From: a virus
Strand: one strand, 5' to 3'
Virus record (IMG/VR): IMGVR_UViG_3300017971_000278
Location: 8,248 to 72,247 of that record
Length of the DNA stretch: 64,000 nucleotides
The translations under genes and the position numbers were made by a program. Shown one piece after another: positions 12,277 to 62,213 of this stretch; position 1 is the first letter of the stretch; each line of letters starts with the position of its first letter. The notes below the pieces were generated by a model. The model did no database searches. It was not told the origin of the DNA and saw only the letters and a program-made list of their open reading frames with translations.

Positions 12277-12624
12277 TTACGCAGCTCCAGCAGCAATCGT
12301 TCCACCAATTATAGCACCCATCATAGCAACTTGCTTAACAAGATTAACTACTTGTTTAACAGGAGGATCGATCATATACATTGCACTAGGCGTTGCCATT
12401 GTTGATGGCAAGATACCCATTACAGAAGTTTGAAATGTGAATAAACCACCTATGCGAACCTGATTAGGACTCGAAACAATACTCATTGGTCCTGCTATAG
12501 AGGTACCACGTTCGTCTACCATTATTCCATTATCTTCAGCTGCTGTTAATCTGACTGATTTTTCAGATACAACAATACCCGAATCAGAGGACGGATGTGA
12601 TTTTATAGTTTTTGGATCTGCCAT
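12277..12624 (-). CDS. Putative baseplate spike, beta-rich C-terminal part (115 aa)
   Basis: Short beta-strand repeats (SGIVVSEKSVRL, NGIMVDERGTSI); lies between hub and gp25; AAGGAG SD. Confidence 0.4.
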   Translation of the reverse strand: MADPKTIKSHPSSDSGIVVSEKSVRLTAAEDNGIMVDERGTSIAGPMSIVSSPNQVRIGGLFTFQTSVMGILPSTMATPSAMYMIDPPVKQVVNLVKQVAMMGAIIGGTIAAGAA

Positions 12625-12644
12625 ATTTATTTTCTCCTTCTAAT

Positions 12645-12653
12645 ATTATACCA
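12645..12653 (-). promoter_or_regulatory. Candidate extended -10 promoter TGGTATAAT
   Basis: In a short intergenic gap upstream of an AAGGAG SD; similar motifs at 51493-51501 and 60230-60238. Confidence 0.35.
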
Positions 12654-13094
12654 TTACATCATGCCAGAGCCTGGAGGGGCATACGCAACGCCCTTCGCAA
12701 CAAGCTCATTTGCCGTAGCAACAGCTTCGTATCTACCACTTTTTAATTGTTGCAATCTTCTAGTTATCAAAGCAACACCATTACTTACACTAGTGCCGTG
12801 ATAAAACACTATAACTTCCCATGACTCTGTTTCTCCACCTGTCATGTTGGCAGGAGAACCATAAAACATAGCAAGCTGATCTTCTGTACCTATAACAGGA
12901 ATAGGACCAGTTTCACCAACAATATTACCATTGTTATCTAGTAGACTCATAGTGAAGACATATAAATCTTGGTATGATTTTTTAATAATAGCTCTTGCTG
13001 TTTTAAAACGATCTACATCTAAATGATCAGTCTTGCTGATTACTTGATTAATCTTTTTGCCAAATTGTGTATGTCCACCAATCTTACCAGGCAT
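12654..13094 (-). CDS. Putative baseplate spike, OB-fold-like N-terminal part (146 aa)
   Basis: Directly after the hub gene; beta-rich with GPIPVIG...WEVIVFY, reminiscent of gpV/gp5 OB folds. Confidence 0.4.
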   Translation of the reverse strand: MPGKIGGHTQFGKKINQVISKTDHLDVDRFKTARAIIKKSYQDLYVFTMSLLDNNGNIVGETGPIPVIGTEDQLAMFYGSPANMTGGETESWEVIVFYHGTSVSNGVALITRRLQQLKSGRYEAVATANELVAKGVAYAPPGSGMM

Positions 13095-16000
13095 TATGCT
13101 TCCTCCAGTCCACCAGTTGCGTCTGCGCCAAATAACTCATAAAAACCTTTTTGAGTATTAACAGAGGTTTCAAATATTTTCTCTGAAAGATCAAACCTAT
13201 CCCATGCATCACTAAGATCATCCCAGTATTGATTCCATTTACCCTCGTATTGTAAGATCAATGAAGTATGATTAGGACCAAGAGAATTACTTAAGAATGG
13301 TTTACCACCAAGAGTTAATGGGGTTGCTAATACAGGAGCACCATCTTGTGTCCACATTGCAAATTTAACGCCCGCACTCAAAGCAAGAAAACTAACAGTC
13401 TTAAGGGCATTGTATCCAGGGATTACAGCGCCAAGTGCAAAGTCTCCATAAGTATACGACATTGCAGATGCTGCGACATCAAATACACTGGCAGTATAAT
13501 AATCATTTGTTTCAACACAAAGGTCTGGTTTTATTACAGAAACATATCCTGTATCACGATTAAATATATGGGTAACAGCTCCTACTTCGACAGGTCCAGT
13601 CATATTAATAGATGCGTCATTAATAAAACAAACATCATAAGGTTTAATATTTTCATCACCTATAACAATTAATTCACCTTTATAGGCGTCTCTTAATGTT
13701 GTTGCGAAAATACCTTGGGCATATTTTCTTGCCATATCAGTAGTAACACAAGAAGGGTATTCTGCAACATAAGATCTAATTGAAGACTCTGGTATATTCT
13801 CATCAAGCTTAACAGCAAAAACACCTGCTCCACCCCTGTGAACTTTCTCAACATGCTCTACCACATCATCAGCATCATCATCAGTTATACTTCCTTCTTC
13901 TTCTGTGTAGTATATTTCTACTTCATTGTATGTACCATCAACAGATGTGCTAATCTCATTCTTTAAGATATGGTGATAACTGTCAAAATAGTGATAATTT
14001 CTAAACGGTACATATCTACCAAACAACTCACCAAGTGCAAATCCAGTGTCGTATCTAGAACCAGAGGTAAGAATATCGTTTACAAAAGCAGCTCCAAGAG
14101 TTGGAGAGCCACTAACAAATTTTTGTAAGTCATTAAGAAGACCTTTTTCTAATAGTCCATCGCCAGTAAAAATATTCCAAACATTATTGCGTAGTTTTGT
14201 TATTTCATTTTTTGCGCCACGAGACAAAGCAACTTCCATTTCACTTGGTGGTCTACTCCAATAGTGTTGCATTTTACTACCAAAAAACATTGTCATTCTT
14301 GGTTCGTGACCATAAGGAACTGCCATAGATATATATCCAGGATGACGAAGTTCATGTTCCTTAAATATTTCCCAAGGTGTTTGTTTTAATGGACGATACG
14401 CACAGGCGTTGTTCCAAAATGTATCCCAAGTTGAAGCATAGGTAGCAGGAGATGGAGCATATATATTGTCATCTTGTGGATAGTTTAAGAATTGGTATCT
14501 ATTAAACACACTTTCTAATCCTCTTGTAGACCATTCTGAAAGTATATTCCTTGGTGTTAATCCAGCAAGCAGACTATCTCCTCTTCCGCCTGTCCATGAG
14601 TGTCTTGCAGATGCAGGGTTTGCGCGATGATATCTATCTTGTCTACCAAAGTTTGCTATGGAATCTTGTATGATCGCGCCGGATAAAGCTTGCTGAGATG
14701 AATAGAAAACAGGACCATCCTCTAAAGGACCAAGCTGAACAGATTCTAATTCAGCACCATATCCTTGACAATGAATTTCAATAATCTTACCGTTCTCTGC
14801 GAGAGCAACTTCAACAACTTGTCCTAGAAACCTTGTTTTTAAATGGTTTGGATTGGCTGCATACCCAAGACGAATTTGTACTTTAACACCATCTTGTAGG
14901 ATCATTTTCTCAAAAGGGTGTTCTTGATCAGTGTCAGCAAAAATACCTTGTCGTTCTGCATCTTTGCCATACTTATTGACATCTTTGTCACTCTCACCAA
15001 ATCTTCTTCGTAACAACAAACCACCTATATTGGTCATTCGTATTACAGCCATAGATGCAGCTATCTCTCTATCTTCGTGTATTTTGATTTCTTGTATAGC
15101 AGAGTAACTATAAAAATCATGAAAGGCTTTTAAGTGGCCACCACCAGCAAAGTCTGACTGTGCAGTGTCATCCTCTATAAAGAAGATTCTAAAAGTAGGG
15201 AAAGCCCTACGCATAGATAAGTCATTACGTTTTTTAGCTAGTGCAGTTTTAGATGCTACTTGAGCTATACGTTTCTTTTCTTCTTTTTCTGCGTTTTCGG
15301 TAATAAAATGAGAATATTTTAACGCTCTCGTGTCTGAAAATATTGCCTCAGCAGTATTGCCTATTGCTTCTGCGTTATCAGTAATATCTGCGATAGCATT
15401 TAAGGCAGCAGTTGCTCCAGGAACAAGAAAAGCCATAGCACCCAAAGCACGTGCACCAAAGCCAAACAGATCAACTGCAGATACACCAGGAATAATATCT
15501 TTAATATCATACCTATCTTTTTCTCGTTCTTCAGCTGTAGAGCTAAAAGTAGCCCCACCATCTTTTGTAGTGGCTAAACGATTATTGCCTTTAGTAGAAT
15601 CACCAGGTACAGAAGTACCTTCTAGATCATTTCTTGCTTCTATATTATTAGCAAGTCTGTCTTTTGCAGGGTCAAGTGCTTTGCCAGCATAAGCTGCATC
15701 AACAGGTTCCAGAAGTGGATTTGGACCAAATGCAAGAAGCTTATTCGCTTCACCATACAGTGACTCTATAAGATTTGCATTGTACTTCTCGCCTACTCCT
15801 GAATCCCACTGTCTGTTTTCACGTATATATGGAGACAGTCTAGTGATAGCATCTAGGTATTTAAAGTTAGCACCTGATTTACTGTCTGCTCCATATTCTG
15901 TTGATACTTTCTTTTCCCATGAAGAGTAGCCATTGTTTACTGTATCAATGTCATCCCTACGTGTATATATTGGTTCCCAAGCTTTTCCACCATTTTGAAA

Positions 16001-19000
16001 ATAATTCCAATAATAACTAAGGTTTCTTTCGCCTTCTGATCTTTTGTGTTCTGATGCTCTCTGTTCTAATATCTTTGGTAAGTTCTTTGACAAATAAGAA
16101 CCACCAAGAAAAGATCCTTCTATGTATCTTTCTACAGATGCATAGGTATTGTTTACGTGATTCTCAAGACGCAACTCCATATTTTGACTATCTGTCATAT
16201 TGGCAATTAATGGATCTTCACTAGAGTCATCATACACATAGTATTCTGGTGGCAAAGCAACTAGCGTACCAGGAAGATTTGGCATATGCATATCTTCATA
16301 GCATGAATTGATATTAGAAGCTACGAAGCCTATTGTGTCTTCTAGTACACCAGGAAAGAATCTACGCATATTCTCTTCGTCATTCATATATGTTTTAAAC
16401 CTACGATAGATAGCATTCATTTCAGATGTCCATCTACGGAACACTTTACCGTGTGTTACATTTGTTTTTTGACCACCGTTATATCTAAAATCACCCCTGG
16501 TTTCTTTTAGTTTTTCTTCTGATATATTAATGGTATCTATTGGGTTTTCATGATGATATGGATTAGAAGCATCATAATAATCACGAGCAATATTACGTTC
16601 GTCACTATGAATGTTTTCTACTCTACCATTCATAACGTGATCAGCGCCCCACTTCTTATATACGTCTTGCCACGTGAGTTCGCCTTTTGTACTTCTCTTC
16701 CATGCTATTGGTGGCATTTCTTCGTCAAGTCTTTTACAAATATCAACTGTATCAACAAGTAGTTTACCTAACCATTCTGGAGTGCCATTGACAGTCGTAT
16801 AAGTTTTACCTGCAGAATCCGGATTGTATTGTACTAGGTTAGAATCCACACTAATATTTGAAGTTATTTTATTAGAACCAATTTTAATATGTCTCATAAG
16901 CGCTCTAATGATTTTTTGCTTCTCACTTATAGTGGTGGCAAATTTATCTTCAAACTGCTCACTAGCAAAATCTTGTGCAATAAACTCTATAATCAATTGA
17001 TGTTTGTCTACACTCTCAGGAGCACTAACGTCTGCTGCATCAACAATGATTACATTTTTTATACCAGAAAGAGCTAGTATTGTATTTTGTCCACCGCGCC
17101 GGAAGAACGTATTAACTAATTCTATTGCACCAGATCCTTTTATAATAGAAGTGAATTGATTAGAATTATTAACAGCTTTTGAGAATAACTCTTTAAGAAT
17201 ATTAGCAGAGCGTTTTCCTTCTTTGCCAGCAAAGGTTAATACTATTTGACCAGTTTTATTACCCGCTCCGAGGAATTGGTAAGTATAATATGGCTGGCTT
17301 GTGAGTTTCATAGGAGCAATCCTATGTCCAAATGTTGTAGATATACTAGAACAAACTATATTTTTTAGTGCATTGCCAAAATTCTGAACTTCAGGATCAC
17401 TGGAAATATTTAATTGTATATCCCTGTAAAATACATTTCTTACCTTTTGGTCGTCATAATAATAATGCCAACCATCGGCAGCCTGTTTATCTATCCATTT
17501 TTCTCTTGCTAATGGATCGTGTTTACTTGTGTTGTTTAACTTTGCTTGTAACGCTTTATACTCGGCTTCAGTTTTTGCTTCTTTGAGTATACGTTGTTTC
17601 TCTACCTGCTCAAAAACACTACCTTTATAGCTGGCAGTTTCTTCTTGTTGGGTGCGACGATCAGACTTTATATCATTTTCGTTGTGAATAGTATCAACGT
17701 CATCATCTATTTCTGTACTAGTACTTTGTTCAATGCCATATTTTTTTGTAAAGTAATTATGTAAGTAAGATTGATCACCTTTTATATATTGTGATTTCTT
17801 ATTTGGGTAAGAAAGATCTATCCATATAGCATCAGTTGGGCGAGTATCAATATGAACGAATTTAGAATTTGGATAAAAACCCTTTCCTGATCTTTTTAAG
17901 TTGTCTTTTGCCCAGGCAAAAAGATCTTCATTCGGCACGCCTTTGATAGTAAGATCCATAGCATCCCCAATTACATGTTTGCGCACTTTGTTTGGCTTAG
18001 GGTCTTTTGTATAAAATTTATTTGTTGCAGGGTTAATTTTTCTCATCCAACCAGGGTCTCGTATACCAGAAACAAATGTAATAGTACGACCAGGATAATG
18101 ATTAGCTATTTTTGCAAACAGCTTAATAAGTTCTTTTGATAAAAAGATAGACTTATTAGCTGTAAGCTTTCTTTTGTCTGCAAGCTTTGAAAGCTGATAA
18201 ATTGTATCTGTCGGTATTTCTCCTTTTTCGTTTAACAAAGGAACAGAAATTGTTTTGCCAGATGCTTTATTTTTGAATCTTATTTTTCTCGTAGGGTCTA
18301 CAGTGCCAGTATTTTTAGTCAAAGCTTCAATTTGTTTATCTTGCTCAGTCTGGCTATCGTGTGTTCTAAGTGTATCATCTAATGTTTTTTGGCCAATTAA
18401 CTTTCTCCAATTCTTAGGAGAATAAAGTTCATCAACATCTTTGTATTTGTAGTCAATAAGATCTTGTAATGTAGCAGGGCTTTCCGCAAATTGACTATCC
18501 GGCGGCATAATTATTTTATATTCTCTGAATTTAAAACCAAGAGAATCTTTGGCGTCGTCAGTAATAGGTGCAGACATTGACTCTAAATGATTAGCAAAAT
18601 ACATCCAAGCGTCTGACTGTATTGGTAAATTTACAGGAACATGGTGGTTTTCTGCTGCATAAGTATTTAATATTTTATCTCTAATTTCATTATTTGCCTG
18701 ATTTGATATTTTAGATAACACAAAATCAGATGACTCATACCCAGACAACTCATCTAAATCAATCTGCTCAACTATTGCAGTAGATACTTGTGATTCATCA
18801 GATGGTTGAGTGTAACCAGGTAATTTTGCATTGTAATAAAAATGCTTACTAAATGGTTTGTAATTAAAATAATGTAATTGTAAATCAAGCACAACCAATC
18901 CAACTGTTTCCATTGTGCTACGCAAACTACCTGCTTCTAAAATAAAGATAGTAGTTTCAAATTCATCAACACCTAATTTTTGTTTTATTGCATTGTTATG

Positions 19001-19486
19001 TACAAATACCAATGGATGTTTTGTTATCTCTGCCATCAAACGTCTAAGTTTAACAACTTGTGATTCGCCCGGAGGAAAAGGAATGCTTAAATTCAAAGTA
19101 ACATCTTGTCGGCCTTCTGAATCAATAATAGGAGCAGATGAACGTAGGGTTTCTCCAATAAATACATCAGTTTGTGTGGAAAGTGATATTCCAGTTATAG
19201 GTACATTGTACAAATGTATATCGTTTAATATTAAAAAACTATCAGGGAATGCATAAAAGTGTGACGACGCTTTAAATATTTCTTCTGGCTTTTTGGATTT
19301 TTCAATTATCTCTTGTTGAAGGTCTGGTCTATTAGTTCCATCTGGAAAGTTTTCGCTAGACACACCATCAGACCATGGGTCAAATAAATCTTTATTGCGC
19401 TCGTAGTCTTCAAACTCGTTATTATTATTACGTTTTATAGGATCTTGTCCTTGTGTCCAATCTCCTTGCTTCCCATAATTTTTCAT
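13094..19486 (-). CDS. Large baseplate hub / central tail protein with an internal M15 (YcbK/DUF882-like) peptidoglycan peptidase domain (2130 aa)
   Basis: VSGIR...KHVIGDAMD...GFYPNSKFVHIDTR (M15 zinc motifs, about 17820-18290); C-terminal hub-like VQIRLGY...FLGQVVEV...IHCQGYG and GELIVIGDENIKPYD. Confidence 0.75.
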   Translation of the reverse strand: MKNYGKQGDWTQGQDPIKRNNNNEFEDYERNKDLFDPWSDGVSSENFPDGTNRPDLQQEIIEKSKKPEEIFKASSHFYAFPDSFLILNDIHLYNVPITGISLSTQTDVFIGETLRSSAPIIDSEGRQDVTLNLSIPFPPGESQVVKLRRLMAEITKHPLVFVHNNAIKQKLGVDEFETTIFILEAGSLRSTMETVGLVVLDLQLHYFNYKPFSKHFYYNAKLPGYTQPSDESQVSTAIVEQIDLDELSGYESSDFVLSKISNQANNEIRDKILNTYAAENHHVPVNLPIQSDAWMYFANHLESMSAPITDDAKDSLGFKFREYKIIMPPDSQFAESPATLQDLIDYKYKDVDELYSPKNWRKLIGQKTLDDTLRTHDSQTEQDKQIEALTKNTGTVDPTRKIRFKNKASGKTISVPLLNEKGEIPTDTIYQLSKLADKRKLTANKSIFLSKELIKLFAKIANHYPGRTITFVSGIRDPGWMRKINPATNKFYTKDPKPNKVRKHVIGDAMDLTIKGVPNEDLFAWAKDNLKRSGKGFYPNSKFVHIDTRPTDAIWIDLSYPNKKSQYIKGDQSYLHNYFTKKYGIEQSTSTEIDDDVDTIHNENDIKSDRRTQQEETASYKGSVFEQVEKQRILKEAKTEAEYKALQAKLNNTSKHDPLAREKWIDKQAADGWHYYYDDQKVRNVFYRDIQLNISSDPEVQNFGNALKNIVCSSISTTFGHRIAPMKLTSQPYYTYQFLGAGNKTGQIVLTFAGKEGKRSANILKELFSKAVNNSNQFTSIIKGSGAIELVNTFFRRGGQNTILALSGIKNVIIVDAADVSAPESVDKHQLIIEFIAQDFASEQFEDKFATTISEKQKIIRALMRHIKIGSNKITSNISVDSNLVQYNPDSAGKTYTTVNGTPEWLGKLLVDTVDICKRLDEEMPPIAWKRSTKGELTWQDVYKKWGADHVMNGRVENIHSDERNIARDYYDASNPYHHENPIDTINISEEKLKETRGDFRYNGGQKTNVTHGKVFRRWTSEMNAIYRRFKTYMNDEENMRRFFPGVLEDTIGFVASNINSCYEDMHMPNLPGTLVALPPEYYVYDDSSEDPLIANMTDSQNMELRLENHVNNTYASVERYIEGSFLGGSYLSKNLPKILEQRASEHKRSEGERNLSYYWNYFQNGGKAWEPIYTRRDDIDTVNNGYSSWEKKVSTEYGADSKSGANFKYLDAITRLSPYIRENRQWDSGVGEKYNANLIESLYGEANKLLAFGPNPLLEPVDAAYAGKALDPAKDRLANNIEARNDLEGTSVPGDSTKGNNRLATTKDGGATFSSTAEEREKDRYDIKDIIPGVSAVDLFGFGARALGAMAFLVPGATAALNAIADITDNAEAIGNTAEAIFSDTRALKYSHFITENAEKEEKKRIAQVASKTALAKKRNDLSMRRAFPTFRIFFIEDDTAQSDFAGGGHLKAFHDFYSYSAIQEIKIHEDREIAASMAVIRMTNIGGLLLRRRFGESDKDVNKYGKDAERQGIFADTDQEHPFEKMILQDGVKVQIRLGYAANPNHLKTRFLGQVVEVALAENGKIIEIHCQGYGAELESVQLGPLEDGPVFYSSQQALSGAIIQDSIANFGRQDRYHRANPASARHSWTGGRGDSLLAGLTPRNILSEWSTRGLESVFNRYQFLNYPQDDNIYAPSPATYASTWDTFWNNACAYRPLKQTPWEIFKEHELRHPGYISMAVPYGHEPRMTMFFGSKMQHYWSRPPSEMEVALSRGAKNEITKLRNNVWNIFTGDGLLEKGLLNDLQKFVSGSPTLGAAFVNDILTSGSRYDTGFALGELFGRYVPFRNYHYFDSYHHILKNEISTSVDGTYNEVEIYYTEEEGSITDDDADDVVEHVEKVHRGGAGVFAVKLDENIPESSIRSYVAEYPSCVTTDMARKYAQGIFATTLRDAYKGELIVIGDENIKPYDVCFINDASINMTGPVEVGAVTHIFNRDTGYVSVIKPDLCVETNDYYTASVFDVAASAMSYTYGDFALGAVIPGYNALKTVSFLALSAGVKFAMWTQDGAPVLATPLTLGGKPFLSNSLGPNHTSLILQYEGKWNQYWDDLSDAWDRFDLSEKIFETSVNTQKGFYELFGADATGGLEEA

Positions 19487-19489
19487 TAA

Positions 19490-22400
19490 TTAAAGCCTCT
19501 CGTGAATTTTTCTCGCCAAAGAATTAGCATCTAATATAGATCTGTCATCTTTAGTTCTTATGTTCACACTGCCTCCGTTAGAGAGTTGTCGTGCGCTCCT
19601 CATTAGATCATCAGAGGAAGAATTCAGGTCATCAGTACGCATTCTTATATTAGCATGCGAGGTTCTTCTTCCGCCACCCATATCATATATTTTAGGTGAC
19701 ATATTCATACCAGGACTTGGTGGATTCATAGGATGACCGCCAACATAATCTGGATTCTCAAAATCTACATTTCTTCCACTATTTGCGCCTTCTGGATTTC
19801 TCATAACACCAGCAGTACTAGGGGCCATAAGCATAATGCCAGCGGCAACCCCAAGTCCAGCAAGTAAAGGTTTCTTTGCTCTGCCAGCTGCACTAAGTAA
19901 ACTTCTGGCTTTTACTTGCCCTCTCATAACAGCTCTTGATGCACGCATAGTGAATTTGTTAATGTTACCAGCATTAGCTTGCATCATAGTTTTTGTAACA
20001 TCTACAGATCCAGTGCGGCGAGAATGAAACATTCTAACAGCCTCTTCTAACGCAATGCCTCCACCATGTCTACCTCTAGATGCAGCATTAGCTTTCATTG
20101 CAGTATCTATTTCTTTGCTTACCGAGTCATAAGAACTAATTGCAGTCTCTGCCCATTTGCGTGGTTCATATTTTAAACTATGTTGAGTAACTCTTCCGCT
20201 AGCGTCAGTCATGGTTCCAGTAATAGTTCTTGGTTTGTCACCCATAATGGTTTTAATAACACCCTCTAGTCTGGCAGTACCTTTCTCTCCACCCTCATCA
20301 ACAGCTTGTGTAATAGATTTATAAAAGTCACCTTCTAAAACACCATGTTTGCCACCAATAGCAGCTTCTTCAAGATGCCAGAATAACTCAGCCATAGGTC
20401 TATATTGTTCAGCTTTGCTATATTGAACACCAAGTTTAAGTTTCTGTAGTGCTATATTTACTTCACCAGTTGTGGTTTTTGCGGTAGATAATTTTCTATA
20501 GCCTTCTACCATGGGGTCTAACCCAGCACCCTTGCTAACGTTACCCTCAACCATATCTTTCATGGCATAGTGATTAAACAAATACTGTGTATACCCTTCT
20601 CTAATATCTTTGTTCATAGCACGACGAGCTTGGTCAGAGGTTCTTCTATCTGAGATTAGCGATAATGTAAATTGATCCTTATCAAAGTCACCCTTCATAC
20701 CAACCATTTCAGACACGTCAACATCTAAAACTCTGCTATCTTGAAATGATATTTTTCCAAATTTAGTAGGCGCGGCCAACATACCATCGACCATATTTGC
20801 ATCTTTCTTAAAATTAACAAACTGAAATGACTCAGGCCCAGATGTAGGATGTCTCCATATGCCACCAGTAATAGATTCGCCTTTTCTAAAAGCTTCTCTT
20901 TGTTGTTGTAAGAATTGTATTTGGTCATCTGCTTGTGCGCGGCTTATTAGGTCACCAAACATATCTTCACCAGTTGCACTTGAGATTCTGAACACACCAG
21001 GATCTTTAGCAAAAGTTTTTCTTTGGCCAGTAAGATATTTTGATCCAATAATCTTGCCTCTGGCTGAAGCTTGTGACTCTGCTTGTTGTACTACAGATGT
21101 TCTAAGTCCAGCAGCAGCCTCTTCTAGTTGCTCTGTAGTTATTTTGCCCATTTCTGCATCACGCATAGCACGTCTAAAACCACCTAGTTCTTTTACTAGT
21201 GGAGTGTCTATAAGTTCTCCTTTTGCCATTTTTGCTTGCATAAGTTCTGGAGCTTCTAATGTTCCAGGTATATACATAACATCAGACCCACCAAGAGCAC
21301 CTAGTTTTCTACCAAGTTTTACGTACCTGCCTTCTGATTGTGCAATATCTCCAGACATAAAAGATTCTAATGGTCTACCTTGTCTGGCTAATTTATCAAA
21401 CAACGACTCTTGACCTAATACAGTTGCAGCCATTTTGTCAGCAGCAGCAAGTTCACCTTTGCCAGCAATTCTTGTAGTTAGTTCAGCAGCATAACGCTGT
21501 CCTATTTCACCCTTCATAGACAATGCTCTAAATCCACTAGGCTCAAATGTTCCCCATTTGCCGGACCCACCTTCTGTTGCAATGTCACCAAGCATACCTT
21601 TGGTCAGCCCAACAACACCAGGTGAACGAGCAATATGACCAGCTTCTCTCCATGACAATGTTCCAGATTTTGCAAAGTCAGACAATGTATCTCTACTCAT
21701 AAGACCAAATGTAAGTTGCATTTCGTCTCTATTGAACTGCCAATTCTTTGCTAATCCAACAAGATTTCTTTGTATTTGTGTGTGTGCTGAACTACCAGCA
21801 GACCTAACTAGTTGTTTAACATTCATAGCAGCAGTGGGGTTTTCTAAAAATGCTATTACTTCTGGTGTTGGTTGCATTGAACCAGATTGTATTTTTTGTG
21901 CAACAAACATAGAGGTAGCTTCAATTTGTTGGGTAAGTAGTGCCATTTTGTTTCTACCAACAAGCTTACCAGAGAACACAGCTTCTATTGGTTGGCCAGC
22001 TATATTAACTCTATCTCCCATTCCAGCGGCTTTAAGTACACCTCTCATTTTTGTTTCGTCGGCAGCAGAAGCCATATATTTACTTTCTTCGGAAAAATAC
22101 TTCCACATCTCTGTAGAAGAAAGTTTTCTTCTTTCCCTAAGGTAAACATTTGCTTCGTTCTTGCCAGTTAATTCTGCACCAATAGCAGTAACACCAGCGT
22201 TACTATCTAATCCAGTTAAAATATCCTTACCCGTCCCTCGTTCTATACCGACAAATCCTTCTTTAGCACCTATATTTAAAGGTACTGTTTCGCCTATCTT
22301 TTTACCTTCAAGACTACTAGCAAGATTTTGGTTAACCATAAAACCTTTATCTAAAGCTACCTTCTTTTGCATGATACGTTCATATTCCATCATACCAGTA

Positions 22401-23893
22401 ACACTCTTAGAAATAACTCCTTCTTCGGCAGCAAGCATTTGATTAAGTGCTCTGGACTGATAACCAATACCATATCCACTACGTGAAGGTTTTGCATAGA
22501 AAGTTGTTAATTGTGGTGCTGAATATGCCTGTCCAGACAATGGCGACTTGTCACCATACATAAATTGCTTATACATTGGACCTTGTATTTTTCTATCTAA
22601 CCTGTTGTAGTATTGTCCAAATAATCCTTTAAACCCTGTTGCTCTAGATTTTGCTTCTCCTGTAATTCCCCATTCTGGACGAACAAATTGTGTTGGTCTA
22701 TCACTTGGAGATGCAAATGCACCAAGTGGACCAAAAAGATCTTCAGCTAAGTTTCTTGTTGATAATGTGCCTTTGCTCGCTGCGCCAGGAGATGTAAAAG
22801 GATATAGACCTTTCCCAAAAAGATTAATGATATCGTCCTCTTCCATTGCTCCATACATAACAGCTTCTTGTGTTGTAAGTCTAGCTCTGGCCATTCCGCC
22901 AGAAGTCATATAAGGACTTGCCCATATTGCAGCAGCTCTATTGCCAGAGTCTCGCATATTCATATGATCAATAAGCCTTTGATTGGCATCTAAAACATTT
23001 TGTTTTAAATGTGCTTTTGTTTTCGACTGCTGTATGGCATCTATTAAACTTTCTTCGTACATTTCTGGGAAAGACATTTTTCTGCCAGTAACATCATACC
23101 CTTGTCTTGTCACATATCTTGTATTAAGGTTCTTACTACTGTATGTAACTCCAGTTTGTGCCAATGGCATAGCAGCTAATCTATCTTCACCAACTTGTCC
23201 AATCATCATAGGGGTACTTACAGGCTTCCCAGCAACAACATCATCTATATTTTGATACGACCATTCTATTGCTCCCTCAAGACCAAACGCATCGGCAGCT
23301 CTCTTTTGAATTCTAAGAGCATGTTCTCTAGCCTTTGCTGGTAATAAATTTATATCAGAAAAACCTTTACGAGCTGCGCCTCCAAAGCCACCTGGGGATA
23401 TAGCACTCATAACACTTTGTTCAGTAGATAATTTTTGTATATTTGCTTGAAAAGAACTTATGTCTCCAGAGTATTTTTGAACAGCAGCAAGTCCAGCTTT
23501 ATATGCGCCAAGAGCAGAAGTTTGTCTATTAATAGATGACATTGCACCCAGCGCTTGTTTATGTGTTAAAGCACCACCAGACATTAAAGATTGATATGTA
23601 GAAGCGTGGATGTTTGCTATTGATTCAACAGCACCAGCTCTTCTTTCAAAAGCAGATACACTAGCCTGTACCGCTTCGTCAAAAATATCAGCACCTGGCA
23701 TACTATTTTTAAGAGAATTAAAACCAGTAAGACTTTGTGACTGTGCAACTGTTTGGCCGATAATATCTGTATTTGCAGTGTTCCATGCTTCTTGAAAAAG
23801 TTTTTTGTTTTTTAAAAAAGCATATCCTGCGCCGCCAGTAAAGGCAGTTCCAGCAGCTAGATTCCAAGGCATATTTTTATCATCATCAAACAT
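19490..23893 (-). CDS. Putative virion-packaged single-chain two-barrel RNA polymerase (1467 aa)
   Basis: Ordered motifs: EEGVISKSV, VYLRERRKL..WKYFSEESK and GQPIEAVFS (beta-like barrel); RGKIIGS, IWRHPT and MKGDFDKDQF (beta'-like barrel); GYRKLSTAKTTTG and EEAAIGGKHG (bridge helix/trigger loop-like). Located between tape measure and hub. Confidence 0.75.
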   Translation of the reverse strand: MFDDDKNMPWNLAAGTAFTGGAGYAFLKNKKLFQEAWNTANTDIIGQTVAQSQSLTGFNSLKNSMPGADIFDEAVQASVSAFERRAGAVESIANIHASTYQSLMSGGALTHKQALGAMSSINRQTSALGAYKAGLAAVQKYSGDISSFQANIQKLSTEQSVMSAISPGGFGGAARKGFSDINLLPAKAREHALRIQKRAADAFGLEGAIEWSYQNIDDVVAGKPVSTPMMIGQVGEDRLAAMPLAQTGVTYSSKNLNTRYVTRQGYDVTGRKMSFPEMYEESLIDAIQQSKTKAHLKQNVLDANQRLIDHMNMRDSGNRAAAIWASPYMTSGGMARARLTTQEAVMYGAMEEDDIINLFGKGLYPFTSPGAASKGTLSTRNLAEDLFGPLGAFASPSDRPTQFVRPEWGITGEAKSRATGFKGLFGQYYNRLDRKIQGPMYKQFMYGDKSPLSGQAYSAPQLTTFYAKPSRSGYGIGYQSRALNQMLAAEEGVISKSVTGMMEYERIMQKKVALDKGFMVNQNLASSLEGKKIGETVPLNIGAKEGFVGIERGTGKDILTGLDSNAGVTAIGAELTGKNEANVYLRERRKLSSTEMWKYFSEESKYMASAADETKMRGVLKAAGMGDRVNIAGQPIEAVFSGKLVGRNKMALLTQQIEATSMFVAQKIQSGSMQPTPEVIAFLENPTAAMNVKQLVRSAGSSAHTQIQRNLVGLAKNWQFNRDEMQLTFGLMSRDTLSDFAKSGTLSWREAGHIARSPGVVGLTKGMLGDIATEGGSGKWGTFEPSGFRALSMKGEIGQRYAAELTTRIAGKGELAAADKMAATVLGQESLFDKLARQGRPLESFMSGDIAQSEGRYVKLGRKLGALGGSDVMYIPGTLEAPELMQAKMAKGELIDTPLVKELGGFRRAMRDAEMGKITTEQLEEAAAGLRTSVVQQAESQASARGKIIGSKYLTGQRKTFAKDPGVFRISSATGEDMFGDLISRAQADDQIQFLQQQREAFRKGESITGGIWRHPTSGPESFQFVNFKKDANMVDGMLAAPTKFGKISFQDSRVLDVDVSEMVGMKGDFDKDQFTLSLISDRRTSDQARRAMNKDIREGYTQYLFNHYAMKDMVEGNVSKGAGLDPMVEGYRKLSTAKTTTGEVNIALQKLKLGVQYSKAEQYRPMAELFWHLEEAAIGGKHGVLEGDFYKSITQAVDEGGEKGTARLEGVIKTIMGDKPRTITGTMTDASGRVTQHSLKYEPRKWAETAISSYDSVSKEIDTAMKANAASRGRHGGGIALEEAVRMFHSRRTGSVDVTKTMMQANAGNINKFTMRASRAVMRGQVKARSLLSAAGRAKKPLLAGLGVAAGIMLMAPSTAGVMRNPEGANSGRNVDFENPDYVGGHPMNPPSPGMNMSPKIYDMGGGRRTSHANIRMRTDDLNSSSDDLMRSARQLSNGGSVNIRTKDDRSILDANSLARKIHERL

Positions 23894-29604: not shown

Positions 29605-30522
29605 TTATACTAGGTTTCTTCCAATAAAACTATACGTTTCAAAAATTGGCTGACCTGAAACCTCTATTGTTTGAGTTTGGCCAGTAAAGGATAGTTCTAA
29701 AATTTTCTTTACGGTATGATTTGCTGGTTGGCGGGACATATCACCGTAAACTATCCAAACATCCATTGGTGGATATTGGTCTGCACGTCTATGACTAAAA
29801 ACTTGTTCATCTGATATTGCATCTTGCCAAGGTAGATTTTTAGAAAATAGTTTATCGCGCACTGTTGGGTTGGCTTTATCAGAACCATACCATATTGCAT
29901 CTTCAAAAGCTTCTGCCCAGTCCTCAAATGCATTATCTGGTAACGCACCTAATTCTTTCCAGAATCTATTGAAACTTTTATTTTGTCTGTTGTTATCAGC
30001 GCTTTGTTGCCAATCAAACATCTGCTCTACATTTGCCTCCAGTACCCTTTTATTACTAGCTGCTTTTGCAGCTGCTGTCAAGGTATTTCCTGCTTTTGTA
30101 GTGTCATAGTAATTGACTTTATTGCCATTAGAATCTAAAGAGTATCTTGGAGAGGTCCATATTTCATTATGTGCCTTATTCCAATCTTCTTCTGTTTGTA
30201 TACGGCTGCTACTAATGTTAGCTACTTTCTCTTGAAACCTTTGCATTGGCCATAACAAATAACCTGCTTCTTTAAAAGCTATTGTGAGTGTGCCTTGAAC
30301 TATGACATGTCCGTCAGCAACAAAACTATAATATTGACTTGAGTAACCATATACTGGAGTTTTAGTTTGACCAACACTAAAATTTATAGCTGCGGCGCTA
30401 TCAATTAAAACATCGCCCATCATGATACCGATCTGAGAACCAGAGTACCAGTCGTACTCATAGGCGTTATTACCTATATTATTAGGTGTAATAAAATTAC
30501 CGTTTTGATCTCTTAGTGGCAT
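29605..30522 (-). CDS. Tail tube-like protein (tube initiator paralogue, 305 aa)
   Basis: YSGSQI...QTKTPVYGY...GHVIVQGTLTIAF and DQYPPMDV align with the adjacent tube paralogues. Confidence 0.65.
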   Translation of the reverse strand: MPLRDQNGNFITPNNIGNNAYEYDWYSGSQIGIMMGDVLIDSAAAINFSVGQTKTPVYGYSSQYYSFVADGHVIVQGTLTIAFKEAGYLLWPMQRFQEKVANISSSRIQTEEDWNKAHNEIWTSPRYSLDSNGNKVNYYDTTKAGNTLTAAAKAASNKRVLEANVEQMFDWQQSADNNRQNKSFNRFWKELGALPDNAFEDWAEAFEDAIWYGSDKANPTVRDKLFSKNLPWQDAISDEQVFSHRRADQYPPMDVWIVYGDMSRQPANHTVKKILELSFTGQTQTIEVSGQPIFETYSFIGRNLV

Positions 30523-31445
30523 TATATAAACTGATTCCTTCTATATATGTGATTGTTAAGAAAGTTTTTATGTCTTGATAACTTATCTGCAGTCATTGTC
30601 CACTCTTCTTTTATACCTTGACCGTCAATTGCACGCTTGTCAACAATTCGCATAGGATCTAAATCCCTTGCTACATACTGTACTACATTTTCAGAAAAAA
30701 TGTCTTCAATTGAAAAAGTGGAACCTTCTGATACAAACTCAACGCCCCATATTCCCATATGTGATAAAGCGCCATATTCATTTGCAAAAACCAAACTTAT
30801 ATCAAGAGGTGGCAACTGATCAGGTAAATTAGTTGTGTAAGTATATTTATCATGATCACTAGTGCCTGTATTATAAAATTTAAGATTAAGAGCTAATATT
30901 TCATGTAGTACATGTTGGTGGAAAACGGTAAAAATCATACTACCAGCAATTGTTCTTGGACCGCGAGTATAGGCTCTAGGATAAACAGACCCCAGTGTTC
31001 TAACTGGAGCTTTATCTCTATGTATTTGCCAGGAAATAGTTTGTAGTTCTGCGAGCACTTTAGATGTAGGTATTTTAGAAAGCTGTTCTAACTCTTCCTC
31101 CATGTTTGTTAAAGACGTGCTGTATTGTTCTAAGTTTTCTTGTAGTATTGCAACAGTATTAGTTTTGTTTGCATATTCTTGGCTGGCCATAATACGATCA
31201 AGTTCTGCAGCAGATTCATTAAAAAGCCTTTGGTCTTCCGCTATATTACTTTTTATCATATCTAAAAAAGCTTTATCTGGATGCGGATAATGAACCACTA
31301 CTTTTATATCCGCACCGGAGAAACTACCAAACCCAAGGTAGTCAGATACATTAGCATAAGACGCAACCTCATCAGGATCGCCTGCAATTTTTAATGCTTG
31401 AGTGGGTGGTATGATAGTACCAGCTTTGGTTCCAATATTCGCCAT
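30522..31445 (-). CDS. Tail tube-like paralogue with a coiled-coil insertion (307 aa)
   Basis: SFSGADI, RDKAPVRTLG...RGPRTIAGSMIF and DQLPPLDI...ANEYG are shared with 31507-32178. Confidence 0.7.
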   Translation of the reverse strand: MANIGTKAGTIIPPTQALKIAGDPDEVASYANVSDYLGFGSFSGADIKVVVHYPHPDKAFLDMIKSNIAEDQRLFNESAAELDRIMASQEYANKTNTVAILQENLEQYSTSLTNMEEELEQLSKIPTSKVLAELQTISWQIHRDKAPVRTLGSVYPRAYTRGPRTIAGSMIFTVFHQHVLHEILALNLKFYNTGTSDHDKYTYTTNLPDQLPPLDISLVFANEYGALSHMGIWGVEFVSEGSTFSIEDIFSENVVQYVARDLDPMRIVDKRAIDGQGIKEEWTMTADKLSRHKNFLNNHIYRRNQFI

Positions 31446-31460
31446 ATCTATTCCTAACTG

Positions 31461-31491
31461 ATAAAGAAAGGGCTAGATCTCTCTAGCCCTT
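31461..31491 (-). terminator. Rho-independent terminator after the tail tube gene
   Basis: AAGGGCTAG-agagat-CTAGCCCTT hairpin running into TTTCTTTAT on the minus strand. Confidence 0.85.
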
Positions 31492-31506
31492 ATATTAGGT
31501 GTGTGA

Positions 31507-32178
31507 TTAACCTGCCATGTCTGGGTGAAGCCCCTGGCTTACCCAAGGAATGAGACCATGTGCAATATAGGTATAACTATGTTCAGATACAATATCATCA
31601 ATAGAAACACCGTAGCCAGAATTCATTAATTCCAGGCCGAGAATTTTCATAATAGCGAGTGCGCCGTATTCGTTCGCAGCAGAAAGAACAACATCAAACG
31701 GAGGAATCTGATCTGCATACCAAGGTAATGCTTTCTCTTGATCAGAGCCTGCAGAAGTAAGATTTTGTTCTTGGTTTCCTATCGCGGCTCCAGGCGTATT
31801 TTGACTAGTACCAGAAGAAGTTACAGTGGTATCAGATACGGAAATCTGTTCTCCTGCTTTGTATTCTGGACGAAGATCATCTTGGTCAGACAAGAAATAT
31901 AATCTACGACTTTCTTCTTTTGGGTCTATGTTTGCCAATTCATACATAATTGGTTCATGGTCAAACTGAATAAATACTAAAGAACCTGCAATTGCACGCT
32001 TACCACGAGCAAATGCTCTAGGATCTGCACTACCCATCGTATAGATAGGAGCTTTCTCACGTGACACTTGATAACTGATGCCCTGGATACTACCAATAGT
32101 GTTAGCACCAATAACAGCAGTAATGTCTACGCCGCTGAAGCTATTATAGCCTCTTGTAAATGCGGATTGTAATGCCAT
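31507..32178 (-). CDS. Major tail tube protein (223 aa)
   Basis: Directly after the sheath, with a GGAGG SD and a downstream terminator; SFSGVDI...REKAPIYTMGS...RGKRAIAGSLVF. Confidence 0.8.
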   Translation of the reverse strand: MALQSAFTRGYNSFSGVDITAVIGANTIGSIQGISYQVSREKAPIYTMGSADPRAFARGKRAIAGSLVFIQFDHEPIMYELANIDPKEESRRLYFLSDQDDLRPEYKAGEQISVSDTTVTSSGTSQNTPGAAIGNQEQNLTSAGSDQEKALPWYADQIPPFDVVLSAANEYGALAIMKILGLELMNSGYGVSIDDIVSEHSYTYIAHGLIPWVSQGLHPDMAG

Positions 32179-50136: not shown

Positions 50137-50931
50137 CTATTGGTGCAACATCATACCTTCTTTACCAAGCATAGATCTAGCACTCATCATGCCTCTATTC
50201 ATTGCTTGTAAAGATTGTTGTCTCATTGTATGTGCACCTTCCGTCATAAATGCAGTTTGATCTCCAACCCAACCAAGTTGTCTTCTATTTCGTTCGTTTT
50301 GTACTGCCTGATCAGCAGTAGCAAATGTTGCATCTGTAGCACCACTAAGTGCAGCACTACCAGCAAGACCACCACCGAAAAACCCAACTGCTCCACCAAT
50401 AAGTCCACCTGCTACTGCCCCTACTGGGCCTAAGAAAGCACCAAGAGCAGCACCAGCTGCAGCACCAGCTCCAAGTCCTGCCTTACTACCTATTTCAAAT
50501 CCAACAAGCCCAGCAGCGCCAGAAATCATTGCTTTGCCTTTCTCGTAAGGGCCACCAGGTGTTGTAAAGGCAGGGGCCACTACAAATGCGGCACTCATTG
50601 CTGGGCCTGCAACTTTACCAAGTTTTCCAAGCATTCCGGCTTTTGCGGCACCTTGTTCTGCTGATACAAGTGCTTTGGCTATTTTCTTATTGCCAGGATA
50701 TTGCATTTGCATTTTTCTTAAGTTGGCAATATGTTGTGTGCTTCCAGGTTTATGTGTTCTGCGCCAAGGAGACTTTAATGCCTCTCCAGTAGTAGGAGCA
50801 AATATAGTTGCAGCGAGCCCGCCTCTAGCGTAACTAGACGAAAAATGTCGCTTTCCAAAATCTTGTGCCTTATATCTAGGATCAACTAAACCAGAAGGAC
50901 TTGAGCCAAAATTTTCTTTAAACCATTGCAT
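50137..50931 (-). CDS. Glycine-zipper membrane-type protein (264 aa)
   Basis: Long GxxxG run (GLGAGAAAGAALGAFLGPVGAVAGGLIGGAVG). Confidence 0.65.
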   Translation of the reverse strand: MQWFKENFGSSPSGLVDPRYKAQDFGKRHFSSSYARGGLAATIFAPTTGEALKSPWRRTHKPGSTQHIANLRKMQMQYPGNKKIAKALVSAEQGAAKAGMLGKLGKVAGPAMSAAFVVAPAFTTPGGPYEKGKAMISGAAGLVGFEIGSKAGLGAGAAAGAALGAFLGPVGAVAGGLIGGAVGFFGGGLAGSAALSGATDATFATADQAVQNERNRRQLGWVGDQTAFMTEGAHTMRQQSLQAMNRGMMSARSMLGKEGMMLHQ

Positions 50932-60175: not shown

Positions 60176-60229
60176 TAATTAGTTTTCCTCCCCTATGTTA
60201 ACCCCCACTACATTTACTATACATTTATT

Positions 60230-60238
60230 AGTATACCA
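60230..60238 (-). promoter_or_regulatory. Candidate extended -10 promoter TGGTATACT
   Basis: Intergenic, upstream of 59864-60175 and the long downstream operon. Confidence 0.35.
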
Positions 60239-60294
60239 TACTAGAAATAGATATGACTTTAGTAAATCCTACAAAGGGAAGATTTGATCGCCGA

Positions 60295-60912: not shown

Positions 60913-60921
60913 TAGGTAAGA

Positions 60922-62200: not shown

Positions 62201-62213
62201 GAAGGAGTCAGTC

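Follow-up and report, generated by a model that had tools for sequence, protein, structure and literature searches.

RNA polymerases (RNAPs) that carry both barrels of the two-barrel enzymes in a single chain are known from phages, and in some cases they are part of the virion. In case of phage P23-45, the RNAP has been described as making up the N-terminal portion of gp96, a tape measure protein of 5,002 aa (PDB 8h2m/8h2n), and this tape-measure-fused virion RNAP transcribes the pre-early genes (PMC10770324). In crAss-like phages, gp66 of phi14:2 is reported to be virion-packaged and related to the QDE-1/RdRP branch (bioRxiv 10.1101/2020.03.07.982082). QDE-1, RDR2 and the YonO-like enzymes are described as devoid of the SBHM insert that is typical of cellular beta (PMC7824862), and an RdRP-like gene of Bacillus phage 0305phi8-36, orf99, has been assigned to the non-structural right arm of that genome (PMC2147016).

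The 64,000-nt stretch of DNA analyzed here (the window) is part of the genome of an uncultured giant contractile-tailed phage, a myovirus with ~190 kb that belongs to the 0305phi8-36 lineage. Within its block of tail genes, the minus strand, to which all coordinates below refer, contains at 19490-23893 an ORF of 1,467 aa that is open throughout (P0001). It starts with an ATG that is preceded by GGGAG, and gaps of only 3 nt separate the stop codon of the upstream ORF from this ATG and the P0001 stop codon from the next ATG. The order of genes is identical in nine of nine related loci: two chaperone-like genes are followed by a giant ORF (1,390-2,610 aa), the P0001 homologue (1,461-1,509 aa), a hub-like ORF (2,034-2,158 aa) and baseplate genes. 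In the window, the downstream giant ORF P0028 (13094-19486, 2,130 aa) is a baseplate hub or tail lysin with a Peptidase_M15 domain at aa 399-550, and it has the hub proteins gp147, ME3_37 and MTATph1 CDS0032 as homologues. The original prediction had placed P0001 between tape measure and hub, which is too simple, as P0001 itself occupies the slot that is annotated as tape measure in 0305phi8-36, its closest characterized relative. The upstream ORF P0027 (23897-28069, 1,390 aa) is a homologue of 0305phi8-36 gp145, which is annotated 'virion structural protein', of ME3_35 and of MTATph1 CDS0026; it contains Gly/Ala-rich hydrophobic segments, its relatives vary from 1,390 to 2,610 aa, and it is a candidate for the true tape measure or for an ejection protein.

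At the level of sequence, P0001 could not be linked to any RNAP. Searches against Pfam (E<=0.1) and PHROGs returned no family, PF05183 (RdRP) included, and phmmer and two profiles found nothing relevant among PDB sequences, which comprise the gp96 chains of P23-45. It had been anticipated that automated annotation would name such a gene hypothetical or tape measure, and indeed its distant homologue in Acinetobacter phage vB_AbaM_ME3 is recorded as 'hypothetical protein', and in the ESM Atlas, the cluster that comes closest bears the name 'phage tail tape measure protein', albeit with a non-significant score of 0.77.

The predicted structure gives a different picture. An AlphaFold2 model of residues 420-1320, calculated from a 32-sequence alignment and numbered from aa 420 as residue 1, has a mean pLDDT of 85.5 and a pTM of 0.78, is globular without any extended helical tape, and contains two double-psi beta-barrels (DPBBs). 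Among the PDB matches listed by Foldseek, the best 50 are all large-subunit chains of multisubunit RNAPs, with marginal statistics (E-values 6e-4 to 3e-3, TM-scores 0.12-0.20); upon re-alignment of the Foldseek-ranked chains, 962 of 993 reached a Z of at least 5. When 48,161 chains were searched independently of Foldseek with VIA-align, ranks 1-19 were exclusively two-barrel RNAPs, and 18 chains had a Z of at least 8, which has to be seen in relation to the Z of 7-8 that is common for unmatched models. The best match, ZmRDR2, aligned over 354 residues (Z 11.5, model 38-893) and QDE-1 over 373 residues (Z 10.2; further QDE-1 scores 9.9-10.0), both covering both barrels, and P74 gp62 reached Z 8.5. 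The predicted two-barrel core was thus recovered, and P0001 as a whole (19490-23893) is, by fold match and conserved residues, a homologue of single-chain two-barrel RNAPs and a very diverged relative of cellular RNA polymerase.

The two halves of the model match separately. The half that contains DPBB-B (aa 431-777, model 12-358; 21563-22603) aligns with 230-262 residues of the beta-like chains of ASFV, vaccinia, Pol I, phiKZ and AR9 (Z 8.8-9.4), and the second half (aa 828-1307, model 409-888; 19973-21412) aligns over nearly whole Rpb1/beta' chains (Z 9-10.4, about 300-380 residues). Its barrel DPBB-A (aa 950-1080, model 531-661; 20654-21046) matches the designed DPBB 7dww_A over 82 of 86 residues (Z 6.4, rmsd 2.4), and also the N-domains of Cdc48/VAT (Z 5.9-7.2). 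Further downstream, a long helix within the beta'-aligned range (aa 1127-1159, model 708-740; 20417-20515) is, by predicted secondary structure, a bridge-helix candidate, and a helix, a flexible tip (model 762-766, pLDDT <50) and a second helix (aa 1161-1200; 20294-20413), with conserved E1175, I1179, K1182 and H1183, are a trigger-loop candidate. The N-terminal region (aa 62-409; 22667-23710), a helical bundle (62-165) followed by an alpha/beta domain (187-409), resembles the N-terminal part of RNAP beta only weakly (best Foldseek match 6vvt_C, E 0.089; Z 5.1-5.4 to 8qma_A, 6j9e_C and 6rfl_B), and it is preceded by a Gly/Ala-rich helix that is modeled with low confidence (aa 9-28; 23810-23869).

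All motifs that had been named in advance are present in the translation, the DFDKD (aa 1069-1073) exactly at 20675-20689, in a loop between two strands of DPBB-A. As a bare DxDxD is not improbable by chance in such a long protein (rough estimate 0.2), it is the conservation across homologues that lifts this candidate Mg-binding triad above chance. The family comprises 171 proteins, of which 144 are full-length (at least 1,200 aa) and 27 shorter fragments were left out, and the identity among the full-length members falls to about 16%. Nevertheless, each of the three Asp residues is present in 144/144, as is R1014 of the W-R-H-P motif (aa 1013-1016, 20846-20857; P1016 142/144, H1015 125/144), and the lysines of the pair K598...K605 (KYFSEESK, 22079-22102), at the predicted model strands 178-182 and 186-192, are found in 142 and 138 members, respectively. 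K1182 (142/144) and E1175 (140/144) are also nearly invariant, and H1183 is present in 126/144. In an alignment of 126 sequences with a mean column identity of 14%, only five columns are invariant, namely P876, R1014 and the three Asp, and in the 26 close homologues (38-100% identity) the Asp triad, the complete W-R-H-P and both lysines are without exception; the close family likewise shows no variation at W10. Conservation of some of the named motifs, such as AAEEGVIS and GQPIEAVFSGKLVGR, is limited to closer relatives, and position 490 is E in 64/144 and G in 76/144. The Lys in the fourth position of DFDKD had been considered an unusual replacement of Gly, which does not hold for this family: the position varies freely (of the 144 members, 54 have A, 27 G, 24 R, 12 K, 8 D and 6 N), so that the Lys does not point to autoinhibition or inactivity. 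The DFDKD loop has a pLDDT <50. Its Asp triad would probably lie with the Lys pair where the two barrels meet, with K598 and K605 as candidate counterparts of the two active-site lysines of beta. The family-invariant residues are exactly those used by the RNAP superfamily, and when identity is so low, the retention of the triad, R1014, the Lys pair, K1182 and E1175 reads as a signature of selection on catalysis and not on a scaffold.

The C-terminus provides a possible link between P0001 and the virion. A hydrophobic segment at aa 1343-1361 (LLAGLGVAAGIMLMAPSTA; 19811-19867, Kyte-Doolittle 1.71) is predicted to form a membrane helix, and such a segment occurs within the last 220 aa in 117/144 members. 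Together with a conserved tail ending ...DDRSxLD..., it forms a C-terminal module (about aa 1320-1467; 19493-19936) that is shared with the C-termini of 0305phi8-36 gp146 (residues 2357-2519, i-E 2e-6) and MTATph1 CDS0031 (i-E 5e-4), with a weaker match in ME3_36 (i-E 0.016; local hmmsearch, Z=1000). It is gp146 that holds the slot of P0001 in 0305phi8-36; it is annotated 'hypothetical tape measure', and its record states 'identified as virion protein by mass spectrometry'. DxDxD is absent from the slot gene of 0305phi8-36 and of MTATph1, two relatives in the wider lineage, and the slot therefore does not require a polymerase. The conserved position in the tail operon and the module in common with gp146 lend indirect support to a packaging of P0001 into virions.

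Taken together, P0001 is probably a catalytically competent single-polypeptide two-barrel RNAP that is made late, packaged with the tail, ejected, and used to transcribe the first genes. Its chain would comprise a beta-like N-terminal region, DPBB-B with K598/K605, a beta'-like clamp-core segment, DPBB-A with RHP and D1069/D1071/D1073, bridge-helix-like and trigger-loop-like elements, one membrane helix and the short conserved tail. Produced late alongside the tail proteins, P0001 would be built into the tail by its C-terminal module, which is common to the 'tape measure' gene of the lineage. Upon sheath contraction, it would be ejected along with the other two giant proteins, become anchored at the inner membrane via the C-terminal helix, and there transcribe the first genes of the incoming DNA, whose uptake it may assist by pulling. 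With its size of about 100 kDa, the core in its folded form would not fit into the lumen of a tail tube, and it would thus have to be unfolded, or accommodated in some other way, for storage and ejection. In a complete relative of 197,730 bp, we detected no other RNAP and no sigma-70 region 2; the model of T7-type RNAPs (PF00940) had no match there either, which carries no weight, as it matched 0/14 control genomes. The host enzyme must therefore do most of the transcription, and it is not obvious why an RNAP would have to be injected. Counting exact 10-mers in the intergenic DNA of this relative, we found no phage-specific motif that recurs (at most 3 copies).

What alternatives exist? P0001 could be an ejected protein of the tape-measure slot with a mainly structural or mechanical role in assembling the tail, forming a channel, or piloting and pulling DNA, whose polymerase fold is kept for gripping nucleic acids or for another nucleotidyl transfer instead of early mRNA synthesis. 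The slot and C-terminal module of gp146, the name of the ESM-Atlas cluster and the near-constant length (from 1,461 to 1,509 aa across the nine loci, 139/144 full-length members within 1,400-1,650 aa) would all fit, and with RDR2 and QDE-1, two RNA-dependent enzymes, as closest structural neighbors, several templates are possible. However, a globular model is not what is expected of an extended helical tape, and such a role would not explain why the triad and R1014 are absolutely, and the Lys pair, K1182 and E1175 almost absolutely, conserved, and we thus regard it as rather unlikely.

The same tail-gene context bears on the idea that an active enzyme remains unpackaged and acts within the cell, e.g. 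on late genes, on a subset of genes or in replication priming, which we consider quite unlikely. There is a precedent in the YonO/RdRP-like RNAP of 0305phi8-36 (orf99), whose gene lies apart from the structural module and which is described like any other phage RNAP (PMC2147016; PMC7824862), but the position of the P0001 family is strictly kept in all nine loci, with 3-nt gaps at P0001, and its membrane helix and tail module recur in a mass-spectrometry-verified virion protein of the same slot. Moreover, transcription together with the tail genes would probably come too late to be of much use in the current infection cycle. That P0001 is no polymerase at all, with chance motifs and a fold match caused by the commonness of beta-barrels, is highly improbable: the missing sequence-level match to RNAP families, the marginal Foldseek statistics and the Z-scores of unmatched models would be compatible with it, but not a Z of 10-11.5 over more than 350 residues with both barrels in the right order, halves that match beta and beta' respectively, a top 19 of RNAPs only, and invariant residues that coincide with those of the superfamily.

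In comparison with known systems, the packaged early polymerase that we favor resembles P23-45 gp96 in several respects. As far as that system is described, both are single-chain two-barrel RNAPs that tailed phages encode at the position of the tape measure, both loci include membrane segments and a metallopeptidase, neither RNAP is recognizable by sequence beyond DxDxD, and in both cases transcription of first genes during DNA entry is proposed. In contrast to gp96, where the RNAP heads a 5,002-aa tape, P0001 is a stand-alone ORF of ~1,470 aa in a contractile-tailed jumbo phage, the peptidase resides in the neighboring hub protein, the complete relative shows no paralogous non-virion RNAP, and the structural similarity is modest (Z 5.8/5.7), below that of RDR2 and QDE-1. 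These two, the best structural neighbors, and the YonO-like enzymes likewise have both barrels in one chain, but this group corresponds to Pfam RdRP PF05183, which P0001 does not match. Like P0001, phi14:2 gp66 (PDB 6VR4) is described as a large single-chain two-barrel RNAP with DFDxD, encoded beside tail and virion genes (bioRxiv 10.1101/2020.03.07.982082). 6VR4 is not among the best 50 matches listed for the P0001 model in the VIA-align search or the re-alignment, and matches to crAss-like proteins in BFVD are weak (ranks 15, 20 and 35; E 1e-3 to 5e-3). The crAss-like phage is a podovirus and belongs to another lineage, and gp66 is longer (~2,180 aa). Both gp146 of 0305phi8-36 and ME3_36 (ME3 gp36) are encoded in the slot of P0001, with the gp145-like giant ORF on one side and the hub on the other, and gp146 is, as described, a different gene from orf99. 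In contrast to P0001, gp146 has 2,537 aa and no DxDxD, and it does not match the polymerase part of the family profile significantly (sole other stretch hmm 45-193, i-E 1.6). ME3_36 lies beyond the BLAST range of P0001 and escaped the narrower profile A2; it is a distant, collinear cultured homologue with a match to DPBB-B (i-E 3.8e-6; whole protein E 1.4e-7 at Z=1000), a GGDHDQDQ at residue 1217 and a structural match to the P0001 model in BFVD (E 2.3e-9). P0001 represents a previously unrecognized sequence family of 0305phi8-36-like jumbo myoviruses, and probably a new one within the known virion two-barrel RNAPs, next to crAss gp66 and P23-45 gp96.

The giant ORF at 19490-23893 (minus strand) encodes P0001, a protein of 1,467 aa that by its predicted fold and signature residues belongs to the superfamily of two-barrel RNA polymerases (RNAPs), i.e. 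enzymes built on double-psi beta-barrels (DPBBs). The AF2 prediction of residues 420-1320 (model position 1 being residue 420) was made with 32 aligned sequences and reached a mean pLDDT of 85.5 and a pTM of 0.78, with low confidence only in three loops, the DFDKD loop among them. When this model was compared with the PDB by Foldseek, 50 of the 50 matches listed were beta/Rpb2-like or beta'/Rpb1-like chains of multisubunit RNAPs, from sources that include vaccinia, Thermus, Pol I, II and III, mycobacteria and the phages AR9 and phiKZ, with modest statistics (E 6e-4 to 3e-3, TM 0.12-0.20); after re-alignment of the best Foldseek chains, 962 of 993 had a Z of at least 5. A clearer result came from a search of 48,161 chains with VIA-align, which is independent of Foldseek and placed two-barrel RNAPs at all ranks from 1 to 19. 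The paired barrels of the original prediction are present in the model, the beta-like one first and the beta'-like one second, and both are spanned by maize RDR2 (Z 11.5, rmsd 4.8, 354 residues, model 38-893) and by QDE-1 (Z 10.2, 373 residues, model 25-900), while beta-type chains align with model 12-358 (Z 8.8-9.4) and beta'-type chains with model 409-888 (Z 9-9.8). P23-45 gp96 was found with Z 5.8/5.7 and P74 gp62 with Z 8.5, the structure determination of the latter being listed, together with that of gp64, a non-virion RNAP, in a Methods heading of PMC10770324. From rank 20 onwards, the matches are isolated double-psi barrels such as Cdc48-N and the designed DPBB 7dww_A, which covers model 531-661 with 82 of its 86 residues (rmsd 2.4) and thereby gives the bounds of DPBB-A, the barrel of the beta'-like half. 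The crAss-like phage enzyme phi14:2 gp66 (6VR4) is absent among the structural matches listed, which is no evidence of a difference. Among predicted viral structures (BFVD), the best matches were an unnamed entry (E 2e-11) and protein A0A172Q021 of phage ME3 (E 2.3e-9), followed by an uncultured-siphovirus 'minor tail protein' (E 3e-7) and a Microcystis phage protein, and the poxvirus, giant-virus and crAss-like RNAPs rank lower in this list. The N-terminal 439 residues gave a mediocre model (pLDDT 72.6), in which residues 187-409 weakly resemble the N-terminal parts of beta subunits (Z 5.1-5.4; best Foldseek match RNAP beta, E 0.089), and we take this as a hint of beta-subunit likeness, no more.

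All motifs on which the original prediction was based do occur in the P0001 translation, with DFDKD at residues 1069-1073 (DNA 20675-20689). The Asp triad lies in a loop between model strands 636-640 and 655-660, within the range of DPBB-A, and K598 and K605 both fall within the beta-aligned region. A 33-residue helix (model 708-740; residues 1127-1159) is followed by a helix, a disordered tip and another helix (residues 1161-1200); this helix-tip-helix element bears the conserved residues E1175, K1182 and H1183, and like the long helix it is situated within the Rpb1/beta'-aligned range. The long helix and the helix-tip-helix element are candidates for the bridge helix and the trigger loop, and the Lys pair for the two basic residues that DPBB-B provides. 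From order, secondary structure and conservation we infer that the Lys pair, the Asp triad, the long helix and the helix-tip-helix element share one active site in the predicted fold.

The family that carries these residues is large. Beyond P0001 itself, 25 homologues (38-65% identity, all 1,447-1,504 aa) were retrieved from 5.8 billion proteins by a word-indexed search, and no residue of the Asp triad, W1013-R1014-H1015-P1016, K598 or K605 varies in this set. With profile A2 (residues 420-1320, 11 aligned sequences), an exhaustive search of 1.84 billion representatives detected 189 clusters at 50% identity with E<=1e-3, 169 with E<=1e-10 and 58 with E<=1e-30, nearly all of them 1,430-1,700 aa long. 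Conservation was counted in 144 aligned members of at least 1,200 aa (median 1,474 aa; 1,400-1,650 aa in 139 of them), 27 fragments being left out. D1069, D1071, D1073 and R1014 are each present in 144/144, P1016, K598 and K1182 each in 142, E1175 in 140, K605 in 138 and H1183 in 126. In the alignment of 126 sequences, with a mean column identity of 14%, invariance is limited to five columns, P876, R1014 and the three Asp. Judged by these alignments, the catalytic residues of the family are intact and strongly selected. An inactive or autoinhibited enzyme, which the original prediction had considered because of the unusual Lys in DFDKD, finds no backing in the family: the position between the second and third Asp varies freely (A 54, G 27, R 24, K 12, D 8, N 6 of 144), and the Lys therefore carries no message.

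Searches by sequence did not connect the family to known polymerases. P0001 matched 0 families in PHROGs and Pfam (E<=0.1), neither the Pfam RdRP (PF05183)/YonO-like profile, the likeness to those enzymes being one of structure only, nor the cellular beta/beta' profiles (RNA_pol_Rpb1_2, RNA_pol_Rpb2_6). Comparison with PDB sequences by phmmer and with profiles A1 and A5 gave chance matches only (E>=0.48), and tblastn of P0001, its core and the distant members P0056 and P0100 against 50,697 phage records gave E=2 at best. ESM Atlas scores were <=0.77, under its own noise level, and a cluster look-up returned no names. The scan of 185,579 prokaryote genomes yielded 173 pattern matches with 0 relatives among them, and thus no prophage or host clue. 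A description of the family was not found in the openly licensed PMC and bioRxiv literature.

In which genomic context does this polymerase-like protein occur? CheckV estimates the source contig (72,247 bp, of which the window is 64 kb) to be 38% complete, which suggests a genome of roughly 190 kb. Almost all window genes lie on the minus strand, and PHROG matches comprise portal, large terminase, major head protein, tail sheath (32194-34083), three tube-like paralogues and a baseplate wedge; by this gene content the phage is contractile-tailed. The tube-like paralogues are three consecutive ORFs at 29605-32178 (minus strand; 305, 307 and 223 aa), which all match phrog_9206 'major head protein', a label that is probably misleading, as these ORFs are located directly past the sheath, where 0305phi8-36 has its tail tube and a paralogue. 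In the head/packaging block, an ORF of 264 aa at 50137-50931 (minus strand) matches tail-associated lysin, endolysin and tape-measure PHROGs (best 3.2e-9) and, going by these matches, is a lysin-like domain outside the tail module. In the tail region, two small ORFs in chaperone position are followed by three giant ORFs with 3 nt between successive giants, namely P0027 (23897-28069, minus strand, 1,390 aa), P0001 and the hub-like P0028 (13094-19486, minus strand, 2,130 aa). The gene order is identical in 9/9 related IMG/VR loci (L007, with the coordinates and lengths of L003, and the truncated L008 were left out): two chaperone-like genes, three giant ORFs, three small genes and a wedge protein of ~420 aa. 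The first giant ORF has 1,390-2,610 aa in these nine loci, the P0001 homologue 1,461-1,509 aa and the third 2,034-2,158 aa.

Comparison of the large terminase and sheath with those of cultured phages points to Moorella phage MTATph1, the Bacillus 0305phi8-36 group and Acinetobacter phage ME3 as the closest (24-39% identity); a 2021 jumbo-phage survey assigned ME3 to its group 2.2. In all three, both neighbors of P0001 have BLASTP-detectable homologues: P0027 corresponds to 0305phi8-36 gp145, ME3_35 and MTATph1 CDS0026 (E 1e-44 to 1e-21), and P0028 to the hub proteins gp147, ME3_37 and CDS0032. P0027 contains three Gly/Ala-rich hydrophobic segments (aa 26-44, 340-361 and 487-505); in P0028, aa 399-550 form a Peptidase_M15 (DUF882-type) domain, and the homology of this protein to the 0305phi8-36, ME3 and MTATph1 hubs is C-terminal. 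For the slot between them, there is no BLASTP-level partner of P0001 in the three phages; profile A2 had no match in the ME3 record, and hhalign of A2 gave E 0.14 with ME3_36 and E 0.52 with gp146, the middle proteins of ME3 and 0305phi8-36. GGDHDQDQ occurs at residue 1217 of ME3_36, a 1,603-aa protein with the annotation 'hypothetical protein'; gp146 (2,537 aa) and MTATph1 CDS0027 lack DxDxD. In MTATph1 (OR602862), the middle giant gene at 12513-19869 is apparently split by the transposase gene CDS0028. The record of gp146 reads 'hypothetical tape measure protein; identified as virion protein by mass spectrometry', and the name tape measure was given chiefly on tail length, as stated in PMC2147016.

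A link within the slot emerged at the C-terminus, when an HMM from the 126-sequence alignment was run on about 330 target ORFs with Z set to 1000, on which the E-values depend. In gp146, only the C-terminus matched (residues 2357-2519 with profile 1269-1442, i-E 2e-6), and this match, which is in part a hydrophobic stretch of low complexity (bias 4.6 of 22 bits), takes in the hydrophobic segment and a tail ending ...N.N I. DDRS... The C-terminal module also matched MTATph1 CDS0031 (313 aa; i-E 5e-4), just past the transposase. ME3_36 is collinear with the profile (whole-protein E 1.4e-7): its DPBB-B region with KFFSxxxK has an i-E of 3.8e-6, the DxDxD region matches weakly, and the C-terminal module has an i-E of 0.016. 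These matches indicate that the slot and the C-terminal module are lineage-wide, and that the polymerase body is confined to the P0001 family and ME3. P0001 itself has a single strong hydrophobic segment, a predicted membrane helix at residues 1343-1361, and a similar segment is found within the last 220 residues of 117/144 members. The C-terminus of P0001 would be of a docking type that is common to the known virion protein gp146. P0001 might itself be regarded as a tape measure, as it occupies the slot of the protein so annotated in 0305phi8-36 and has the C-terminus in common with it. Against this, the model is globular, and the P0001 gene keeps a constant length among relatives, in contrast to the 1,390-2,610 aa of the upstream ORF; P0027 may be the true length determinant or ejection protein in this lineage.

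P0001 combines a predicted two-barrel RNAP fold and a predicted membrane helix with co-linearity with tail genes. The position in the tail operon and the module in common with a virion protein are indirect indications that P0001 may be packaged into the virion and may act in early transcription independent of the host RNAP. P0001 would be a late product that is incorporated into the tail or baseplate via its C-terminus; sheath contraction would then expel the ~160-kDa protein along with the gp145-like protein and the hub that bears the peptidase, and P0001, held at the inner membrane, would transcribe the leading genome end. The same model has been put forward for P23-45 gp96 (PMC10770324, Discussion). 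If the polymerase is injected, the divergent region at ~60000-64000, where the strand switches to plus-strand genes beyond a non-coding stretch, is a candidate promoter site. As the nearest structures are RNA-dependent enzymes, the template could be DNA or RNA. YonO, a phage member of the RdRP-like branch, acts on DNA. The same is stated for gp66, another phage member of this branch (10.1101/2020.03.07.982082).

Which other transcription components do such phages encode? A complete relative (G001; 197,730 bp with terminal repeats) has one copy of the P0001-family gene, and profile A2 found only one matching gene per record in 5/5 records. The cellular RNAP profiles PF00623 and PF00562 had no match in the contig of the window or in two near-complete relatives, with 14/14 control genomes positive for each; the complete relative lacked matches to these profiles as well as to PF04542 (sigma-70 region 2; 11/14 controls positive), and the 0 matches of PF00940 are uninformative, as the control was also 0/14. 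Those large DxDxD-bearing ORFs of the complete relative that were scanned with Pfam, a scan that left out the 950-aa ORF at 158415-161267 across a locus boundary, are replication enzymes. The large ORFs of this genome besides the P0001-family gene encode enzymes of replication and nucleotide metabolism, among them Pol III alpha with inteins, a primase-helicase, RNR and ThyX. Inteins or homing endonucleases interrupt replication genes at 140352-172864 of this genome, where Pol III alpha is in pieces, a class II RNR has both LAGLIDADG and an intein, and ThyX is fused to a LAGLIDADG domain. In 83 stretches of intergenic DNA from the complete relative (14,011 nt in total), a crude search for promoter motifs found no exact 10-mer in more than 3 copies and no recurrent phage-specific motif. 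In ME3, BFVD linked the polymerase model to a second protein, A0A172Q0S6 (798 aa; KU935715 224453-226849, minus strand; E 3.2e-5 over 551 columns). This protein lacks the acidic triad and has no homologue in the complete relative (phmmer best E 1.1), and it may be another RNAP-like protein, either degenerate or split.

We regard it as a real, if slightly less than even, possibility that in a large and previously overlooked 0305phi8-36-like jumbo-myovirus clade (at least 189 metagenome clusters at 50% identity plus ME3) the tape-measure slot is occupied by a membrane-anchored two-barrel RNAP with the tail-docking C-terminus of the relatives' tape measure, which the contractile tail delivers at the entry pore, thereby coupling genome entry to first transcription; this would be the third independent tail-delivered family and the first in contractile tails. 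If this is true, a tail-delivered RNAP becomes directly testable in a cultured A. baumannii phage. The family, widespread in metagenomes and represented in culture by ME3 gp36, bears on the start of jumbo-phage infection, as the first genes may be independent of the host RNAP, and on the nature of the giant 'tape-measure-region' ORFs in the 0305phi8-36 lineage, and in the evolution of the RNAP/RdRP superfamily it would form an additional, highly diverged branch. Compared with the openly licensed literature, P0001 would be new in its sequence family, virion type (contractile tail) and architecture (stand-alone ORF in the tape-measure slot), although the 23 RNAP families and the viral-genome survey of PMC10770324 may already include the family or ME3 gp36.

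How does P0001 compare with known systems? Judged by the predicted fold, it would represent a third family of virion-delivered two-barrel RNAPs, in contractile-tailed jumbo phages, that is invisible to sequence searches. Such enzymes occur in crAss-like podoviruses and in one group of Thermus siphoviruses. P0001 would be like both in the way it works, but no sequence test places it in either family. In contrast to P23-45 gp96, it is a separate ORF of 1,467 aa that is not fused to a long tape measure, and only a C-terminal membrane/tail module of ~150 aa exists beyond the polymerase. The metallopeptidase that is located inside the tape measure of P23-45 has its counterpart here in the M15 domain of a neighboring gene. 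By analogy, P0001 probably works like P23-45 gp96, yet it is not of the gp96 type.
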